Assembly: GCA_963785235.1 (NCBI GenBank)
Contig: CAWAUM010000001.1
Coordinates: forward strand, 544,001 to 608,000
Direction: 5' to 3'
From: an uncultured delta proteobacterium
GTDB taxonomy: Bacteria; Desulfobacterota; Desulfomonilia; UBA1062
Length of the DNA stretch: 64,000 bases
Shown here: one piece after another, positions 17,775-58,603 of the stretch
How positions within the stretch are numbered: position 1 is the stretch's first letter
How the letters are laid out: each line of letters starts with the position of its first letter
Made by a program: the position numbers and the translations under genes
The notes under the pieces: generated by a model
What the model saw: the letters and a program-made list of their open reading frames with translations, nothing else
The model's database searches: none
What the model was told of the DNA's origin: nothing

Positions 17775-18473
17775 ATGATGAAGCTGATGACTCACGTCAT
17801 TCCATATAGGATATATTCAGGATTCCGAATAGGGATTCTCTGTATCGTGGTGTCCCTCTTGCCGGCCAGGGTATTCTCATGGGAGCCAACCCCTTTTGAA
17901 ATTCAGGATACTGCGAAGCATGGCTTGCCCGGGTTTATCAGGTCCCTGCCTGAAGACCAAGTCAAATCATACGGATTTTCGACCAAGAGTGAAGCCGCAC
18001 GCACAACATTAAATGGAGGCATAAGGGTTTACACGATCAAACCCCATGTCCTGTTCAGTTATAAGAAGGGCATGGATGTCACCAGGATGATAACCCCGAC
18101 AAGCATGTGGATCTTCCCTGTTCTGGAAGGGGGAAGATCGAAGTCTTTGCTCACGGTTGATCGAATGCACGGAAAATGGGAGGCAGTTGCCTTTGGGGGT
18201 TCCGGGTTGGCAAGCCAACTGGAGGAAGTAGAGTTGAGATGGCCTTCTTCGAAGGGGTATGACCTTACCTTCGTGAGGGTTTTTCAGGCTAAATCCGACT
18301 TAGTATTCATCGCAAAAGGCAAAACAGTCATGATTGCACCCCTGGAATCGGCAGTCGTTGGTTTACAGTTGCACGCCAATGCAGGCCGTTATGGGGATAA
18401 GGTGTATGCTCCTTATGAAATATTGCCCAAGATGATACCTGTTGTCCGCCAGAACCTCCAGGCTCAAGAGTGA
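17775..18473 (+). CDS. Secreted hypothetical protein, upstream partner of the papain-like protease
   Basis: Open frame with a signal-peptide-like N-terminus; no family recognised. Confidence 0.6.
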   Translation: MMKLMTHVIPYRIYSGFRIGILCIVVSLLPARVFSWEPTPFEIQDTAKHGLPGFIRSLPEDQVKSYGFSTKSEAARTTLNGGIRVYTIKPHVLFSYKKGMDVTRMITPTSMWIFPVLEGGRSKSLLTVDRMHGKWEAVAFGGSGLASQLEEVELRWPSSKGYDLTFVRVFQAKSDLVFIAKGKTVMIAPLESAVVGLQLHANAGRYGDKVYAPYEILPKMIPVVRQNLQAQE

Positions 18474-18510
18474 TTCTTTTGTGAGCGTAAGTCATAGTTC
18501 AACAGTAGCA

Positions 18511-21500
18511 ATGGGATTTCTTATGATTAGGATACACGGGATGCTGCGAGGATTTCTTCACATAATCATAGCGTTTTTCTTGCTCTCCCAGAGCGCCATA
18601 TGCAATGCAGCCATCCTGCCTGTCCCGCTCGTTTCACAGGAGAAGACACACTGGTGCTGGGATGCGGGTAGTCAGGCCATACTTGCCTATTACGGGGTCA
18701 GCGTTTCCCAGTGCGAGATCGCCGATTTTGCGCGGATCCAGAATAACTGGGGATATAGCGACTGCTGTCTTTACCCGGATAGTTATGGCTGCAACAATGA
18801 GAATAGTATTTCCGGCAGCCGGGGCAGTACCTGCGGAGTATTGTCACATTGGGGTCTGAGAAACGCCTGGAGGGACTATCCATTATCTCAATCCACGGTA
18901 TCATCCGAGATAAGTTCGAGAAGACCTTTCGGGATTGCCTGGCGATGGAATAGCGGTGGGGGCCATTTTCTCGTGGGTCGCGGCATTGAAGGCAACAAGG
19001 TGCATTATCTGGATCCCTGGCCGGGAAATGGTTTTCAATCAGCCTCCTATGAGTGGGTGGCAGGGAGTGAAGATCATACGTGGATTGAGAGCATCCAGCT
19101 GATAACCCCTGGCCCTGAATGGGTCCCGCTGAACCCGTTGCCTCAGGGAACAGCGATCAGTCTCAGGGCCGTGTGGGGCGCTTCCGGCAGCAATATCTTC
19201 GTGGTTGGAGACAACGGCACGATCCTGCGCTACAACGGCAGCGTGTGGGTCCGCATGACCAGCGGCACTGCCAATGACCTCAATGGCGTATGGGGAAGTG
19301 CGGGCAATGATGTCTATGCTGTCGGTACGAATGGCACGATCCTGCACTACAACGGCAGCACGTGGAACACCATGACCAGCAATACCCCTCACTATCTGAA
19401 GGGGGTATGGGGCACAACGGGTGCAGACGTTTTTGTTGTGGGAGATAACGGCACGATCCTGCACTATAACGGAAGCTCATGGAGCCCCATGAACAGCACC
19501 ACCAGCCTCGAATTATCAGGAATATGGGGCAGTGCGGCCGATGATGTCTATGTTGCCGGAGATCAAGGTCTGATAATGCGCTACAACGGCAGCACGTGGA
19601 ACATCGTGACAGGGGGCAGTTCAGCAGGATTCCTTGAGAGCATATGGGGAAGCTCGGCCGGAGATATCTTTGCTGTGGGAGAGGCCGGAACGATCCTTCA
19701 CTTTAACGGCAGTGCGTGGAGCAGTGTGCCGAACCCGCTCACCGGGAGTCTGACAGGGCTCCGGGGGATATGGGGCAGCTCCGGCAGCTTTGTATTTGCC
19801 GTGGGAGATGAAGGTACAATCCTTCACTACAACGGCAGTTCCTGGGTTAGCATGACGAGTGGAACCGATAAAATGCTGTGGGGTGTGTGGGGCAGTCCGG
19901 CACTTGATGTCTTTGCCGCAGGGGATGAAGGAACGGTCCGGCGTTATTCAGGTCCCCTCGTTTCTGATTTCACCGCTGAACCGAGAAGTGGTTCGCTGCC
20001 TCTGGTTGTGAGTTTCTCCGACAGGTCCACAGGGGCCATCACATCCTGGTTATGGAACTTCGGAGACGGCACGACGAGCACATCCATGAATCCGACTCAT
20101 ACCTACACCAGGGCAGGGACATACACGCCCAGCCTCACCATTGCCGGACCGGACGGAACGAATACCAACACAAAGACGGCCTACATTTCCGTGTTGAATA
20201 CGGCAATATCATGTTCCCCTGTGACCCTTGCTTTAACCTGTCTTCCAGGATACAACGCACCGGGCCAAACCGTACAGGTCTGGAACTCAGGGGATGGAAC
20301 GATCAATTACACACTATCAGCTGATCAGTCCTGGATCTCCTTCTCAAGTCCAGGTGGGTCTTCAGCCGGGGCATCAGATAAAAAGTCTGTTACAGTTCAT
20401 TTTACCACATCGGCCCTTGCCCAGGGAAGCTATTCGGCCACCATCACCATCAGTGCGCCGGAGGCTGCAAATGCCCCCGTACAGATCCCGGTGCGCCTCA
20501 CGGTTCTTTCTCCGACTATAGCTTTCATTCCGGGGTCGCTTACCAATTCCTGCTGGCAAGGGTACAATGCACCCACCCAGACTTTTCAGGTCTGGAACTC
20601 AGGAGGAGGGACAATCAATTATTCCCTATCCGCCGATCAGACATGGCTCACCTGTCAACCTTCGAACGCAAGCTCCACTTCGACAGGAGGCGGCAGCGGG
20701 CATAGCACCATCAGGGTTAATTATGCAGCCTCAGGTCTTGTTCCCGGTAGTTACCCGGCCAACATCACTATCAGTGCGCCCGGCGCCATGAATACCCCAC
20801 GCATCATACCCGTAAGCTTAAAGGTGAATGCCCCTGTGTCCCCTTCATCCCCGGTTATTTCACAGAGCATACCAGCAAGTATTTCGGTAACCTGCGCAAA
20901 GGGTGCAAATGCATCAAGCCAGTCTTTTGATATCTGGAACTCAGGCGGCGGGTCGCTGGACTTTACTCTCTATGGGGATGTGCCATGGCTCTCACTCACT
21001 CCATCACATGGGACCTCTACGGGGGGGCATAATACAATAATTGTCGGTTTTACAAACTCAAGTCTTCCAGCAGGGACTTATTCCGCAACCATTACCGTCA
21101 GTGCCCCAATGGCTTCTAACAGCCCTCAGGTCATTCCTGTAAACCTGAAGGTGAGCGATCAAGAGGTACTTGGAAAGCCGACCCTTTTCATCGAACCCGG
21201 ATCAATCGCGATCACCTGTAAACGAGGTACGGATGCCAACGATCAAACCTTCCAGGTATGGAATTCGGGGAATGGAATAGTAAACTATTCCGTTTCCGAT
21301 ACTGCTGATTGGCTCTCCTGTACACCACAAGGGAGTACTATTTCAGGTTATCGCAGCACTATTACGGTCATCTTCAAGACATCCAATCTCTCCCCAGGGG
21401 AATATGACGAGATCATTACCATTGCTTCAACAGATTCAGCTGTGATGAATAGTCCCCAAAAAATCCCTGTTCATCTATCCGTGAAAGGGGGCGGAGGAGG

Positions 21501-21648
21501 CGGCAGCGGCTGCTTTATCTCTTCTACGACAGCTGCTGTTCCTGGGGCTCGAGTACTATCATTCATTGTTATGTTTGTGATGGTTATCGGAACCAGTATT
21601 TATCGTTCTTGCAGGGTTTCCCATGAGCACCCTATGACCCGGCGCTAA
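18511..21648 (+). CDS. Large surface protein: C39/papain-like cysteine peptidase, ~40-aa WG propeller repeats, PKD, four BACON-like domains, CFI-type CTERM tail
   Basis: QEKTHWCW (Cys), GHFLV (His), YLDPW (Asp); LxGVWGS...AVG..GTILHYNG repeats; SWLWNFGDG; four [VI]WNSG modules; GGGGGGSGCFISS plus TM helix and Arg-containing tail; start codon uncertain. Confidence 0.8.
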   Translation: MGFLMIRIHGMLRGFLHIIIAFFLLSQSAICNAAILPVPLVSQEKTHWCWDAGSQAILAYYGVSVSQCEIADFARIQNNWGYSDCCLYPDSYGCNNENSISGSRGSTCGVLSHWGLRNAWRDYPLSQSTVSSEISSRRPFGIAWRWNSGGGHFLVGRGIEGNKVHYLDPWPGNGFQSASYEWVAGSEDHTWIESIQLITPGPEWVPLNPLPQGTAISLRAVWGASGSNIFVVGDNGTILRYNGSVWVRMTSGTANDLNGVWGSAGNDVYAVGTNGTILHYNGSTWNTMTSNTPHYLKGVWGTTGADVFVVGDNGTILHYNGSSWSPMNSTTSLELSGIWGSAADDVYVAGDQGLIMRYNGSTWNIVTGGSSAGFLESIWGSSAGDIFAVGEAGTILHFNGSAWSSVPNPLTGSLTGLRGIWGSSGSFVFAVGDEGTILHYNGSSWVSMTSGTDKMLWGVWGSPALDVFAAGDEGTVRRYSGPLVSDFTAEPRSGSLPLVVSFSDRSTGAITSWLWNFGDGTTSTSMNPTHTYTRAGTYTPSLTIAGPDGTNTNTKTAYISVLNTAISCSPVTLALTCLPGYNAPGQTVQVWNSGDGTINYTLSADQSWISFSSPGGSSAGASDKKSVTVHFTTSALAQGSYSATITISAPEAANAPVQIPVRLTVLSPTIAFIPGSLTNSCWQGYNAPTQTFQVWNSGGGTINYSLSADQTWLTCQPSNASSTSTGGGSGHSTIRVNYAASGLVPGSYPANITISAPGAMNTPRIIPVSLKVNAPVSPSSPVISQSIPASISVTCAKGANASSQSFDIWNSGGGSLDFTLYGDVPWLSLTPSHGTSTGGHNTIIVGFTNSSLPAGTYSATITVSAPMASNSPQVIPVNLKVSDQEVLGKPTLFIEPGSIAITCKRGTDANDQTFQVWNSGNGIVNYSVSDTADWLSCTPQGSTISGYRSTITVIFKTSNLSPGEYDEIITIASTDSAVMNSPQKIPVHLSVKGGGGGGSGCFISSTTAAVPGARVLSFIVMFVMVIGTSIYRSCRVSHEHPMTRR
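19160..19950 (+). repeat. Intragenic tandem repeats (about 7 units of ~120 bp)
   Basis: Recurrent GGCACGATCCTGCACTACAACGGCAGC-like units. Confidence 0.8.
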
Positions 21649-21717: not shown

Positions 21718-22284
21718 CTACAGGGGATAGTTGTCTTCGAGTATCTCGATCTTTTTTACAAGGAACTGCCTTCCAATCTCCCCGGTGAGAAACACCTTTG
21801 AATTTTTAAAAGAGAGCTCTGATATGGTGAGTTCGGTCATGGAGAGCTTTGTAACAGGGAAAAATTTACGTGAGTTTAAATCAATAAGCTTCTTGATCTG
21901 TTTCTGAACCGTTCCATCAGCAGCAATCAGCTTGTAACGCTTGGATAAACCCCTGGCTATTGTATAACCTTTGTTCTCCGGATCTACGTAGTTACCGAAT
22001 TTAGTCTTAAGTTCGTCGGCATCTTTTTTTGTCATGACAATGATGCGGGCATCGAGGTATTTTATGGATTCAGGGAAAACAACCGGGTTTATCGTGAACA
22101 GGACAAAGGTATCTTCCACCGGCGCCATCTTGACGGCCTTTACGGAATGATCTTTTGTCGTAAGCGCTATCTCCTTACCCGTATCCTTAATATCCCCCCC
22201 CGACCTTGTTGACGAAGATGAGCATGCAGGAAGCACCAAGAGTAATACAAGGATAAAGAACAGAAAGCCCCGGATAGTCTTCAT
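21718..22284 (-). CDS. Hypothetical lipoprotein
   Basis: GAGGAGG RBS; MKTIRGFLFFILVLLLVLPAC lipobox. Confidence 0.7.
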   Translation of the reverse strand: MKTIRGFLFFILVLLLVLPACSSSSTRSGGDIKDTGKEIALTTKDHSVKAVKMAPVEDTFVLFTINPVVFPESIKYLDARIIVMTKKDADELKTKFGNYVDPENKGYTIARGLSKRYKLIAADGTVQKQIKKLIDLNSRKFFPVTKLSMTELTISELSFKNSKVFLTGEIGRQFLVKKIEILEDNYPL

Positions 22285-22614
22285 TACCAGTCCTCCTCAA
22301 TAACGGTGTGGTGATTCTTTCCAAGAAGATTATACCTTGATAGTACAAGCTCATAATAAGCCCCATATCTTTAAGATACGACCAAGTTAATCCCCTTGAG
22401 TTTTCCGGCACAAGATATAGTGGGGGGTTTAAAAATTGTCAAGATAGTACTCAGGTGATCCAGGTGTATCCAGTTCCATCGACCGGTAAACAACCATGAA
22501 CGCCTAATCTGATGTATGGTGAAATATTCTTGTATGTTGTATAGATTTAGTGGCTATTACCACGGGACGACAGTTGAGAAAAACCACTGCCAGGGGGCTG
22601 ACGCATGAAGAAAC

Positions 22615-23304
22615 ATGATGTCCGTAATACTCCAGGAAAGGGTGTCCTGCCTCGGTGCTTGCATTATTCTGATTCTCTGTGTCTTCATCGGTTGTTCTTC
22701 GAGCGATTCAAACCAGAGGTATGGTACCTTTGTGGATAGCGCAGTTGAAGGCATTACGTTCAAGACCGAAACCATGAGTGGTGAGACTGGTGTATATGGA
22801 AGATTCCCTTTTGTTCCTGGAGAAACCGTGACCTTTTCCATCGGGGGCATCATTATCGGGGCCACGAAGGTAAAGCTTGTCATCACGCCGGTGGACCTTG
22901 TTACAGGGGCACTTGATGAGAAAGATCCCGCGGTGACCAACATCACCCGGTTCCTCATCACCCTCGATGAAGACAATAATCCTGATAACGGCATAACCAT
23001 AAGCCCTGCAGTCAGGACTGCTTTGGCCGGCTACTCAGTCAATTTTGCCCAGGACACTGCTCAGTTCGCTCAAGATGCCGAGGCGCTGGATGTGATGGAA
23101 ACCCTGAACGTTCTCTATAAAGGCGATACAGGGGAACGCATACTCTGTTCCGTGATGGACGCCCAGGAACACCTCGGAAATACTATAGAAGAGCTTGCAA
23201 AGAGTGGATACAATAAATCCGGCGGATCAAGCGGCAATATCGATTTCGGTGGAGGAGGCGGGTCAGGCGGAGGCGGAGGCGGATGCGGTGGGTGAGGCGA
23301 ATAG
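22615..23304 (+). CDS. Lipoprotein with GxFVDSAVEG domain and Gly-rich tail; ends at TGA 23295, or reads through as Sec to TAG 23304
   Basis: Lipobox FIGC; GTFVDSAVEGITF, NITRFLITLDEDNNPDNGITI; tail GGGGGSGGGGGGCGG-TGA-GE-TAG. Confidence 0.7.
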
Positions 23305-23308
23305 CCTA

Positions 23309-23326
23309 CATCATCGGTCGATGATG
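23309..23326 (+). promoter_or_regulatory. Candidate bacterial SECIS hairpin
   Basis: CATCATC-GGTC-GATGATG; loop starts after a 20-nt spacer from the in-frame TGA; no U-tract follows it on either strand. Confidence 0.5.
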
Positions 23327-23347
23327 AAAAAACCTCCAATAAAAGCT

Positions 23348-23953
23348 TCACATGAACGGGTGAATGTGCGGAATAATCCAGATGCCTAGGTTTGCGAGCG
23401 CATGCACGATAAATGGTGCCCAGATATTCCTTCTCCATTCGTAAATAGAAGCAAACAGGATGCCGCCTGTGAGTTGGATTACTGAGATGTTGCCGTGCAG
23501 ACAGGAAAAGAGCAGAGATGTGAGGATAATGCACACGGATGCTCCCAGGCTTTCCCTCATCCATGCATAGAGCAGCCCCCTGAAAAAGAGCTCTTCCACA
23601 AAAGGCCCGATGAGACAGCCGATAAAGAAAAAGGCTACCCAGTGGTCAAGAGGCTGCTCTGAGAGAAGCTGACTCAGCAGCCCTTTTTCCATGAAGATCC
23701 GCGAAACAAGGTCTATGGCAAGAACACAAGCGCCAAAGACAGCAGCAATCCCGAGTCCAATGGCAAGCTCCTTGGAAATTGAGGCTGTCATCACGCCGCA
23801 GAGCCTGTATGAAAAAACAAGGATGACAGTCATCTCCACGAGCCTGGCCATAAGTGTGTAGATCAGCCCGTCAACAAGGATGTATCCCGACAACAGCCTG
23901 AACCCGGCTTCTACGAGACAAACCGCAAGAATGACTGCCAGACGCCTATCCAT
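23348..23953 (-). CDS. CPBP (Abi/Rce1-like) intramembrane glutamic endopeptidase
   Basis: PFVEELFFRG, LFSCLH, VHALAN motifs; multiple TM helices. Confidence 0.88.
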   Translation of the reverse strand: MDRRLAVILAVCLVEAGFRLLSGYILVDGLIYTLMARLVEMTVILVFSYRLCGVMTASISKELAIGLGIAAVFGACVLAIDLVSRIFMEKGLLSQLLSEQPLDHWVAFFFIGCLIGPFVEELFFRGLLYAWMRESLGASVCIILTSLLFSCLHGNISVIQLTGGILFASIYEWRRNIWAPFIVHALANLGIWIIPHIHPFM

Positions 23954-24046
23954 GGATATGTATATATAAGGGAAAATGGGAAGGCACAATGAAAGAAACT
24001 TGGCAACAGTCTAATAAAGGCATATCCGATATACAAACTTGTAAAA

Positions 24047-24076
24047 TTGACGAGCATGGACAAGTGCGTCTATACT
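24047..24076 (+). promoter_or_regulatory. Sigma70 promoter of selB (probably leaderless transcript)
   Basis: TTGACG-N18-TATACT, then 6 nt, then ATG; no SD sequence. Confidence 0.55.
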
Positions 24077-24082
24077 GGCACC

Positions 24083-25954
24083 ATGAAAAGGGTAGTCATC
24101 GGCACGGCAGGACATGTGGACCATGGCAAGACATCGCTTATCAAGGCGCTCACCGGTGTTGACTGTGACCGCCTCAAGGAAGAGAAAGAGCGTGGGCTTA
24201 CTATCGAGCTCGGCTTTGCCTCGCTCGTTCTCCCTTCAGGGGAGCGCGTAGGGGTGGTGGATGTGCCGGGGCATGTGCGTTTTATTAAGCACATGCTCTC
24301 AGGGGCCTCAGGCATTGATCTGGTGCTGCTGGTGATCGCCGCGGATGAGGGAGTGATGCCCCAGACAAAAGAGCATGTGCAGATCTGCGAGCTTCTGGGC
24401 ATCAAGCGCGGGGTCGTTGCCCTGACCAAAAAAGACATGGTGGATGAAGACCTGCTGGAGCTTGCCGTCTCTGATGTGCGGGATTATATCCAGGGCACCT
24501 TCCTTAAAGATGCACCAATTATCCCGGTAAGCTCCACGACGAAAGAAGGTCTGGATGAGCTCACCGCTGAGCTCGATGCCCAGGTAGCGCTGGTGCATGA
24601 GCGGCAATCAACAGGGATACCGGTGCTTCCTGTTGACCGCGTTTTCACCATCAAGGGGTTCGGCACCGTGGTGACCGGCACACTGAGCCGCGGTACATTC
24701 TCTCATGAACAGGAAGTCGAGGTTTTGCCCAGCCGCAAGGCTGCCAGGATCCGCAATCTTCAGGTCCATGATGAAGATGTTGATATTGCATTTGCCGGCA
24801 TGCGCACCGCAGTCAACCTCCAGGGCATGGGCAACGAGGAGATAGCCCGGGGTGAATGGGTCGTTCCGGCAGGGGTCTTTGATGCCACCCGTTTGCTTGA
24901 TGCGAAGCTCAACCTTCTGAGGAAGCCGGGCAGGGGCGGAGTCAGGCTCTATATCGGTACGGCAGAGGTTATGGGGGACATGAGCCTGCACAAGGTAGAC
25001 GGCCAGGACATTGGAAGGATAAGGCTCCAGCAACCGATTGTTGCCTCGCACGGCGACAGGTTCATCCTGCGTGCCATATCCCCTGCGGCCACCATTGGTG
25101 GAGGTATGGTGCTCAATCCTCATCCGGCCAGGCGGTTTTCAGAAGAGGTGATCCGCGATCTCTTAAGCGATGACCCTTCAAGGCTCATCATCGGTCTTGC
25201 AAAGGATGCCGGAATGCAGGGCATCTCACGAAGGGTTATCCTCTCTGTGTTCCCCGAAGGGGCGTCCAAGTGGGATAAGCTCATACAAAGCCTGCTCTCA
25301 GCCGGCGAGATCATCAAGTTCGATACAACAGGAGAGCTCTTTGTTCATGCCTTTTACCAGGCCAGGCTCAGGCAGGTTCTTGTATCGCGCGTCCAGGAAT
25401 ATCATGCGGCAAACCCATCATCGCCAGGTGTATCAAAGGAACATCTAAGGATGTCTGTTCAGGGCGGCGTAGAGCAGAAACTGTTCCACAAGGTCTTGCA
25501 GGATCTTGTGAAAAGAGGTGATCTGGAAGAGTCGGGGCCTACGATATCAGCCGCCGGGTTTTCTGCAACCATGGCTGCCGACCGGACCGAGCTTGGTGAA
25601 AAAATAACCAAGATTCTTGAGCAGGCCGGATTCGAGCCGCCAAAGATATCCGAGCTTTCTGAAAGGCTCCATGTCACCAGTAAAAATATCACGGAAATTC
25701 TCGGTTTTCTCAGTCGTGACCACAAGGTCGTCAAGATAAAAGACGATATGTATCTGTCCAGCCAACATGAAGAGACTCTCAAGAAACACGTAGGCGAGTT
25801 CATCCTCAAGAATCAGTCCATGGGGCCTGCTGACATGAAGACCGTCATGGGCTTGTCTCGGAAATATGCAATTCCCTATTTTGAGTACCTGGATCGTATT
25901 CGGTTCACCATGCGTGTGGGGGATGTGCGTAAGCTGGTAATTACATCGAAGTAA
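24083..25954 (+). CDS. selB: Selenocysteine-specific elongation factor
   Basis: [33 protein letters not shown]; C-terminal winged-helix [16 protein letters not shown]. Confidence 0.96.
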
Positions 25955-57206: not shown

Positions 57207-57518
57207 TTAACAGCAGGTTGAATTTTTGGCAGTGTCCGTTTCGCACCCGCACCCGCAAACCGGGGCAGTACCCTTGAGCATGCCATTGAGGATGGCATAG
57301 GCGCATCCAACCCCTTGCTCCACCGTGATGGCGCGCGCCGGGCAGTTCATGCTGCAGGCCCCGCATTCCATGCAGGCATCGAGATCCGTGATGATTGCCT
57401 TCCTCTTCTCCAGGGCGAACACCCCGTGCGGGCACACTTCTTTGCAGGTCCCGCACCCGGTGCAGCTCTCTGCATCAAGGCGTAATGTGGATATGTTCTT
57501 CAGATAGCGCATGTTCAT
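57207..57518 (-). CDS. hgcB: Mercury methylation ferredoxin HgcB
   Basis: MRYL start; two CX2CX2CX3C motifs including CMECGACSMNCP; GVGCA; C-terminal CC; ATGA overlap with hgcA. Confidence 0.93.
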   Translation of the reverse strand: MNMRYLKNISTLRLDAESCTGCGTCKEVCPHGVFALEKRKAIITDLDACMECGACSMNCPARAITVEQGVGCAYAILNGMLKGTAPVCGCGCETDTAKNSTCC

Positions 57519-58603
57519 GACAGTGCTCCTATAAGTATGTTCGCTCCAAGCAGAAGGATGCCGCACGCACCTAAAGCCGCCAATGGCCTGGCGAAGAGGC
57601 CGATCTCCCTGTTCACCCCGGTCTGGGAGGTGAATGTGCTGCATCCGGTAAAGTTCAAGGCCAGAAAGGCACAAACCGCAGGCAGCAGGAGGAGGTTGCC
57701 CAGGAATGGGATCATGCCCCAACCCAGATACATGCCCATGGCAAGGGTCCACAACAAACCCAAGCCCCAGCCCTTCAGTGCGAAAGATCGGGGCGGTAAC
57801 CACGGCAACAGCACGGGTACGCCGATGGTGCCAATCAGCAGCGCACCCAGGACCGGGAGCGTGGATGACACCATGTGCGCCAGGGTCAGATTGCCGGTAA
57901 ACCAGTTCCAGGCTGCTACTGCGCCAAACAGGATCAGGAAGTATTTCATCACCATCACGAGTTCTATGGGCACAACGGCGGCCCTGTCCCACAGGGCGAA
58001 CCTCACGGTCCTCATGGCCGGGGTCGCCTGCATGTTGTTTTCCAGGAAGGGCTTGATGTCGTGCGCCCTTACCGGTCCGAAGACCACCTTGAAACCGGTC
58101 ATTGCCTTGATGGAATGCCCGGCTATGCCCGGCGCACCGAGCTGGGGCACGATGATGGTCTTGTGCGAGACAACATCCTTCAGTCGTGCTGCCCCGATGC
58201 GCCTTGCCAGCTCATCCGTGCCGAAGGTGCCCTTGCCGGCGGCGCACCAGACATTGACGCCTTTGGTGTCAAGGACCAGAATCCAGGCATCCAGGTCGCT
58301 GAGCTCGCTGCGCAGAGCATCGAAGGAGGGTTTGTAATTGGCGGTTGCCAGCACGATTGCCTCTTTGCCAGGGTTGCCCACCGCATAGAGGCCGGGCTGA
58401 ACCTGAAGCGCATCCCTTTTGATCCCCCACCTGGCCTTCCAGCGATCCATTGTGTCCTCAAGGCCGAGGTGTGTCCCTATGCGCGGGATCGGACCCGTGG
58501 ATGCCTGATGGATGCCTGTCACCCAGGGGCCGGTAGGCATGACAGGTATAATCTTTTCCTGAATGCTCCCAAATGATGGTTGCCCGGAGCAGCATGTTTT
58601 CAT
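57515..58603 (-). CDS. hgcA: Mercury methylation corrinoid protein HgcA
   Basis: Cap-helix motif NVWCAAGK; PGLYAVGNP, TANYK, PQLGAPG, FGPVRA; C-terminal TM domain with NFTGCSTFTS; followed by hgcB. Confidence 0.96.
   Translation of the reverse strand: MKTCCSGQPSFGSIQEKIIPVMPTGPWVTGIHQASTGPIPRIGTHLGLEDTMDRWKARWGIKRDALQVQPGLYAVGNPGKEAIVLATANYKPSFDALRSELSDLDAWILVLDTKGVNVWCAAGKGTFGTDELARRIGAARLKDVVSHKTIIVPQLGAPGIAGHSIKAMTGFKVVFGPVRAHDIKPFLENNMQATPAMRTVRFALWDRAAVVPIELVMVMKYFLILFGAVAAWNWFTGNLTLAHMVSSTLPVLGALLIGTIGVPVLLPWLPPRSFALKGWGLGLLWTLAMGMYLGWGMIPFLGNLLLLPAVCAFLALNFTGCSTFTSQTGVNREIGLFARPLAALGACGILLLGANILIGALS

Follow-up and report, generated by a model that had tools for sequence, protein, structure and literature searches.

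In E. coli, the engineered Sel-tag and recombinant TrxR carry selenocysteine (Sec) in a C-terminus of the form ...Gly-Cys-Sec-Gly. Natural bacterial selenoproteins with a C-terminal Sec are also known, and Table 1 of a 2026 review (PMC13188914) includes UXX-star 1 and 2 (NF041114 and NF041211), KCU-star (NF033934) and SaoC among them. The selenocysteine insertion sequence (SECIS) of E. coli, printed in PMC3834832 as ggttgca-ggtc-tgcacc (ggttgcaggtctgcacc), has a GGUC apex, and the same paper describes a synthetic, untranslated SECIS after the stop codon that supports Sec insertion near the C-terminus in this bacterium; a SECIS behind the stop codon is therefore mechanistically acceptable. Here we analyse 64,000 nucleotides of DNA from an uncultured delta proteobacterium (Desulfobacterota; Desulfomonilia; UBA1062), namely positions 544,001 to 608,000 of the forward strand of contig CAWAUM010000001.1 in GenBank assembly GCA_963785235.1. 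In this stretch, referred to below as the window, a first-pass annotation made from the sequence alone had proposed a new selenoprotein, a lipoprotein ending in a Cys/Sec pair on a glycine tether and followed by a SECIS-like hairpin near selB. In nature, the gene (22615..23304, + strand) seems to correspond to the engineered TrxR and Sel-tag cassettes, with which it would share a short C-terminal Gly/Cys/Sec peptide and an untranslated stem-loop with a GGUC apex just past the stop codon (PMC3834832); it differs from them in having Cys and Sec one or two Gly apart and in using another stem sequence.

The open reading frame (ORF) at 22615..23295 (+) encodes 226 amino acids, ending GGGGGSGGGGGGCGG before a TGA at 23293-23295, and the next in-frame stop is a TAG at 23302-23304. 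Its 3' end reads GGGGGGCGG-TGA-GGC-GAA-TAG (bases ...ggc gga tgc ggt ggg TGA ggc gaa TAG). Translation of the TGA as Sec gives a gene of 229 codons that closes with the TAG, in which Sec would be residue 227 (U227) and its partner would be Cys224, encoded by TGC at 23284..23286 (+); the predicted tail peptide is GGGGCGUGG. The bases agree throughout with the proposed ending C-G-G-TGA-G-E-TAG, and they likewise bear out the statement that the alternative frames hide no membrane-spanning sorting tail: after the Gly run, both of the other forward frames yield short polar peptides (including the +1-frame ORF 23195..23389) and no hydrophobic or transmembrane tail. The proposed lipoprotein nature also fits, as the predicted signal peptide (22615..22695, +) ends in the lipobox F-I-G-C (…LCVFIGC), with Cys27 encoded at 22693-22695; an N-terminal helix is predicted at residues 8-25, and Cys27 is nearly invariant among homologs, with G26 before it.

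The evidence for recoding comes from comparison with related loci. A search of a collection of 5.8 billion proteins returned 153 relatives; among the best 34, the predicted C-terminus is a Gly run followed by C, C-G or C-G-G in 33, and the remaining one is a two-domain protein. For the DNA comparison we used seven genome loci with a 3' end (L001-L004, L006, L007 and L015) and ten metagenome loci (L073-L076, L078-L082 and L093), leaving out L005 and L077, whose contigs end before the stop; together with the window these are 18 loci, representing 13 distinct 63-nt sequences. The first stop is TGA in all 18, down to 35% protein identity, and none ends in TAA or TAG at this position. The second in-frame stop follows one to three codons on and is TAG in six, TAA in four and TGA in three of the 13 distinct sequences. 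Before the TGA, the Gly and Cys codons differ among the loci at synonymous positions; thus, these sequences diverged while the TGA did not.

A single Cys lies one or two residues from the TGA in every locus, either before it or in frame after it. The commonest tail in the family is C-G-U-G-(G/S)-stop, with C-G-U-G-stop in L004 and C-G-G-U-G-E-stop in the window; the C-G-G-U variant probably also occurs in the relatives P0001 and P0006. The CxxU motif of the first-pass annotation is therefore right for the window, and the usual family motif is instead C-x-U (C-G-U) or U-x-C. The latter order is found in three distant lineages that have no Cys before the TGA: the tail is G-U-G-C* in L007 and L081, G-U-S-C* in L015, whose protein is 35% identical to that of the window, and G-U-G-G-C* in L082, and in each the Cys codon, TGC, comes after the TGA and is the last before the second stop. 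A Cys on the far side of the TGA and in frame with it is hard to explain unless the TGA is translated, and we regard it as the strongest single argument for a predicted Sec at this position. In most members Sec would be followed by two residues and the stop (U-G-E*, U-G-G*, U-G-S*, U-G-C* and U-S-C*), with U-G* (L004) and U-G-G-C* (L082) as exceptions. Further relatives end in Gly and may be U-x-C forms, including P0036 (Desulfonema ishimotonii DENIS_0519 according to its source), P0053, P0141, P0145, P0190, P0197, P0207 and P0246 and others, as well as P0136, which corresponds to L082; with P0036 as the query, no DNA locus was found.

Downstream of the TGA, the putative SECIS is the hairpin CATCATC-GGTC-GATGATG (23309..23326, +) in the 3' untranslated region (UTR), in which a 7-bp stem (23309-23315 with 23320-23326) closes the loop GGTC (23316-23319). 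It starts 13 nt after the TGA and its loop 20 nt after, as had been claimed, and in its context it folds on its own, at about -13 to -14 kcal/mol. Each of the 18 loci has this hairpin, its loop starting 20, 21 or 22 nt past the TGA, so that both the Cys and the hairpin are kept throughout the family. No changes are seen in the loop or in six of the seven stem pairs, and the spacer and downstream bases vary freely among the loci; the seventh pair is A-U in most, G-U in L007 and L081 and G-C in L082, a change that is compatible with an RNA stem and is statistically weak. The exact 18-mer occurs once in the source genome. In the genomes of 185,579 species, one genome per species, it has 31 matches, of which six belong to the family and 25 are scattered in unrelated contexts; about 17 are expected by chance according to our arithmetic, and the 18-mer is no repeat family. 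A search of Rfam with 23150-23450 returned only two snoRNA rows at chance level (E 4.9 and 8). We considered an intrinsic terminator and rejected it: the stem is AU-rich, the AAAAAA that follows it on the + strand is a T-run before it on the - strand, and a terminator scan of 22300-24100 reported the hairpin on neither strand, in agreement with the earlier remark that no U-tract follows on either side.

The source genome (3.91 Mb, 93% complete) has a complete Sec machinery. It encodes selA (520 bits), selD (383 bits, itself with an in-frame TGA as Sec codon), a tRNA-Sec of 77 bits (gathering score 47) and, in the window at 24047..25954 (+), selB (TIGR00475, 335.5 bits against a cut-off of 242, E 6e-100, with SelB winged-helix domains); the absence of selA, selC or selD, which the first-pass annotation had named as refuting its proposal, is thus not what we found. 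In five other carriers of the Sec-tail gene that were tested, selB was above the cut-off in four. At least six FdhA-type genes with an in-frame TGA lie on contigs C5, C3 and C7 of the source genome, and together with the Sec-type selD they indicate that this organism uses Sec heavily.

These genes also allow the hairpin to be set beside the genome's own SECIS elements. Six FdhA-type genes have the TGA at a U-H motif, and in five of them a GGUCU loop starts 18 nt after it; selD (GAG-U-ACK) has a GGUCC loop 12 nt after its TGA. The window element resembles the FdhA/fdhF type in its apical loop starting with GGUC 18-22 nt after the UGA in a SelB-bearing genome, and the likeness of its apex to the E. 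coli element, which had been pointed out earlier, matches the sequence printed in PMC3834832. The FdhA elements, by contrast, lie within the coding region and have a GC-rich, variable stem, whereas the window element is not translated, is rich in AU and hardly varies. Across the whole genome, 193 hairpins combine a stem of at least 6 bp with a loop starting with GGTC; 44 have a TGA 14-24 nt upstream, and nine of these follow an open frame of at least 100 codons, namely the candidate, five FdhA genes and three others. Because about 0.3 TGA-terminated genes per genome are expected to have such a hairpin by chance (our arithmetic), the TGA and hairpin in the source genome alone are not decisive, and the signal is significant because it is conserved in 18 of 18 homologous loci. 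The three other genes, at C11:201399 (-), C13:26285 (+) and C2:50553 (-), have the hairpin 15-21 nt past the TGA and may be further unannotated selenoprotein genes, or chance.

Taken over the family, the comparison brings out the signals that would recode the TGA, and we consider it highly probable that Sec is inserted at the UGA with the help of SelB and the 3'-UTR hairpin. At the UGA (23293-23295), SelB with Sec-tRNA(Sec) would bind the hairpin CAUCAUC-GGUC-GAUGAUG 13 nt on and insert Sec, after which Gly-Glu would be added and translation would end at the UAG. Part of the ribosomes would likely stop at the UGA, giving a product three residues shorter.

The surroundings of the gene differ between lineages. 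In loci of the Desulfomonilia type, the order is a gene for a 188-aa predicted lipoprotein without a family (21718-22284, -, divergent; kept at the same place, for example at L001:3034-3597), the Sec-tail gene, a convergent gene for a CPBP/Rce1-like intramembrane protease (23348..23989, -; PF02517, E 8e-18, with weak sub-threshold matches to MrtJ and MrtS) and selB. A distance of 53 nt separates the protease gene from the Sec-tail gene, and all eight Desulfomonilia-type loci whose flanks are long enough, the window among them, have it at this place. In L007 and L015 the Sec-tail gene instead follows groES-groEL, and the neighbours of L082 differ again; therefore, adjacency to neither selB nor the CPBP gene is a property of the family. 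The selB start, placed about 0.8 kb away by the first-pass annotation, is indeed 0.75 kb downstream, and this closeness reflects synteny of one lineage only. ORFs of 519-578 aa beside L007 and L015 (67% alike) were considered as a conserved neighbour and rejected, as they look like antisense readings beside groES. A separate observation concerns the protein at 18442-21648 (+) and three others of the genome (C2 near 8774, C8 near 33002 and C12 near 269632), which end in GGGG…C-[F/L]-I, a hydrophobic helix and RR; against the NCBIfam 'CFI-box putative sorting motif', which has a cut-off of 15.9 bits, the tail of the first reaches 12.1. CPBP proteases have been proposed as sorting enzymes of Cys-type signals in a preprint (bioRxiv 10.1101/2023.06.07.544157), so the protease at 23348-23989 may serve as the sorting enzyme for these four proteins.

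The simplest alternative to Sec insertion is that the TGA is an ordinary stop, that the protein ends ...GGGGCG(G) and that the hairpin is another 3'-UTR element, which might affect mRNA stability, bind a protein or act as an atypical terminator where convergent genes meet. Public annotations do end the proteins here (33 of the 34 best matches end in C, CG or CGG), and in Desulfomonilia-type loci the hairpin does lie between convergent genes. Several further observations weigh against decoding as Sec. Covariation in the nearly invariant hairpin is not significant, the observed score being reached by 123 of 500 shuffles, and six never-varying pairs of seven in an untranslated element appear to exceed the known needs of SelB binding alone. 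A homolog with Cys in place of Sec is the classical criterion for a new selenoprotein family, and none with a Cys codon (TGC/TGT) at the Sec position was seen among the family proteins and loci examined, in a search that was not exhaustive. The genome with locus L015 (G405) has only a partial selB, 178.8 bits in a 586-aa frame and below the cut-off. The homolog check suggested in the first-pass annotation thus found the conserved TGA with its hairpin, no Cys homolog among the sequences examined and little covariation. An ordinary stop is nevertheless improbable, as it leaves unexplained why the first stop is always TGA when the second uses all three codons, and why three lineages without Cys before the TGA have an in-frame Cys codon just before the second stop. 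Neither strand has a T-run after the hairpin, which the terminator scan does not report, and the hairpin is kept in L007, L015 and L082, where no convergent or CPBP gene follows; its loop and spacing are also like those of the genome's FdhA elements. That the TGA arose by an assembly or sequencing error or a recent nonsense mutation can be practically dismissed. A 1-nt indel against close relatives does occur near the 5' end of the gene (22632), but 17 other loci, assembled independently, have the same TGA. The TGA and hairpin are also spanned by contigs of two additional runs (X2 record 11 and X3 record 18); six of the seven (X2) and seven of the eight (X3) differences from the window are listed and all fall outside these elements, with one difference per contig not shown.

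The remaining alternative, that the Gly-rich tail with its Cys serves as a signal for processing or sorting and is cleaved or matured by the adjacent CPBP protease, could coexist with Sec insertion and may apply with or without it. It draws on the conserved position of the convergent protease gene and the role proposed for such proteases in the preprint cited above, on the CFI-box-like tails of the upstream neighbour and three other proteins (below the cut-off, as noted), and on the resemblance of the tail GGGGGGCGG to a CFI-box-like signal up to and including the Cys. MYXO-CTERM, JDVT-CTERM and CFI-box proteins similarly have a Gly run ending in a conserved Cys near the C-terminus and a CPBP gene next door. 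Unlike them, the window tail lacks both a transmembrane segment and an Arg cluster, whichever frame is read, and its CPBP neighbour is found in one lineage only: none lies beside the U-x-C members, and elsewhere the CPBP gene travels with selB and the lipoprotein gene as plain synteny. Moreover, the Cys is followed by anything from 3 to 5 residues, which leaves no CAAX-like register, and the CPBP protein is below the cut-off of every Mrt model. We therefore hold a sorting function to be unlikely, and return to the predicted selenoprotein in what follows.

Probably, then, this is a genuine selenoprotein gene that gene callers have cut short. The GenBank record of one member, P0011, is a hypothetical protein ending at the TGA. 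The entry for the window gene in the protein collection (P0003, 155 aa) begins only at residue 72. At 22632 the window has one extra base relative to the contig of run X1 and to the 92%-identical protein P0001, so that the N-terminus reads MMSVILQERVSCLG... rather than MKKHDVRNTPERVSCLG...; the hydrophobic core and lipobox are untouched by this indel.

AlphaFold2, run with an alignment of 103 relatives, gave a model with a mean predicted local distance difference test score (pLDDT) of 86 and a predicted template modelling score of 0.78. The predicted globular domain (residues ~35-200; 22717..23214, +) consists of a beta-sandwich at residues ~33-90 followed by a helical part at ~92-196, with pLDDT >90, and the Gly/Ser-rich stretch after it (residues ~201-223; 23215..23283, +) falls below 50 at residues 204-222, as expected of a disordered tether; homologs differ in its length and composition. 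Although without a Pfam match at E<=0.01, the globular domain is widespread: at E<=1e-3 it is matched by 5595 representative proteins, many of them large multidomain or repeated, and the Gly tether with Cys/Sec is limited to a small subfamily of these. His186 is invariant across the 103 sequences, and Cys178 is invariant in 28 aligned C-G-U-type sequences and variable in the second, Gly-ending set; that these two residues form a site visited by the tail is speculation. Searches for related folds found no match to the model in the PDB at E<=1e-3 with Foldseek, and a wide VIA-align comparison gave a best Z of 4.0, for the transthyretin-like beta-sandwich part only; neither search pointed to a function. 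Protein Atlas returned hypothetical clusters only, with PF13322 in 15% of the members of one cluster, which is a lead only. A paralog of the globular domain is encoded at C3:425791-426381 (+), in a 352-aa open frame with a lipoprotein-like start, another C-terminal part and no Sec tail.

As to novelty, the read-through protein (P0263) matched no family in NCBIfam (June 2026 release), in which UXX-star, KCU-star and other recent Sec models are included, and gave only a weak SslE-type match at E<=10. A Gly-tethered C-x-U or U-x-C lipoprotein is absent from the 119 families in Table 1 of PMC13188914, although Haft and Tolstoy 2025 or supplements might list one; the available parts of the BSepDB paper and of Haft and Gwadz 2022 make no mention of such a family, and a full-text literature search on related terms found nothing closer. 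The earlier statement that no family of this architecture has been described holds as far as these sources reach, and we think it likely that this is a real and uncatalogued selenoprotein family. Like UXX-star, KCU-star and SaoC, its members would have Sec 1-3 residues from the stop, in most cases literally as U-x-x-stop, so that the SECIS must sit in the 3' UTR, and their public records end at the UGA. They differ in being predicted lipoproteins in which a globular domain of 160 residues is joined to a long Gly tether, in having the Cys partner one or two residues off on either side of Sec, and in matching none of the hidden Markov models of those families at E<=10. Residues 42-88 have a weak local match (E 8e-4) to the N-terminal region of SslE/AcfD (NF037974)/DUF4092 (PF13322) proteins, which are also lipoproteins; unlike SslE/AcfD, the window protein has no metalloprotease domain and scores 17.3 bits for NF037974 against a cut-off of 800.

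From these features we infer export, a flexible tail and the chemistry of that tail. The product would be a lipoprotein anchored through Cys27, with its globular domain at ~35-200 followed by some 25 disordered, Gly-rich residues as a tether with the Cys/Sec pair at its end; in the cell envelope, this pair would act as a movable and strongly nucleophilic thiol/selenol hook. What the hook does can be suggested only tentatively. Chelation of a soft metal, for instance Hg(II), is a possibility that we slightly favour because HgcA is enriched in carriers of the gene; the hook may instead act as a redox arm that cycles between selenenylsulfide and reduced forms, exchanging with envelope thiols, disulfides or polysulfides. 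A more specific role, in which the hook captures Hg(II), another soft metal or methylmercury and passes it on in connection with HgcAB methylation, is doubtful.

The link to HgcA is as follows. The window was correctly described as coming from an hgcAB carrier, with hgcA at 57548-58489 (-) and hgcB at 57210-57509 (-), both above curated cut-offs. HgcA was above the cut-off in seven of nine genomes with the Sec-tail gene (G000, G209, G401, G403, G404, G406 and G407) and partial at a contig end in G402 (260 bits). In a phylum sample of 401 genomes, the Sec-tail form occurred only in G000 and G209 and HgcA was above the cut-off in 119, or in 117 of 399 (29%) without these two carriers. Within the taxonomic family of the window, HgcA and the Sec-tail gene were each found only in the same two genomes, and G115, which shares the genus of the window and of these two genomes, showed neither. 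A metal-related role nevertheless has points that tell against it: the enrichment (one-sided Fisher p = 0.004) is uncorrected for relatedness and comes from nine carrier genomes, no HgcA was found in G405, hgcAB is unlinked to the Sec-tail gene (34 kb apart in the window and on another contig in G209), and Foldseek and VIA-align recognised no redox or metal-binding fold in the globular domain, which bears on the redox arm as well. A Cys-Sec form has been reported for most HgcA; the HgcA of the window starts MKTCCSG..., with Cys-Cys in its N-terminal extension, and an upstream in-frame TGA is cut off by a TAA.

In summary, our analysis would add to the known selenoproteins a family that annotation pipelines now end early at the UGA. 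Its putative SECIS would be a natural bacterial example lying wholly in the 3' UTR, for a Sec two residues from the C-terminus, and the predicted product is of unusual design, a lipoprotein with a Cys/Sec pair on a long disordered tether. If the hook were indeed tied to HgcAB methylation, it would fill a gap outside the cytoplasm in the uptake or export of mercury by methylators. The enrichment of the family in hgcA-bearing anaerobes provides a testable lead on the handling of mercury or soft metals outside the cytoplasm of methylators.

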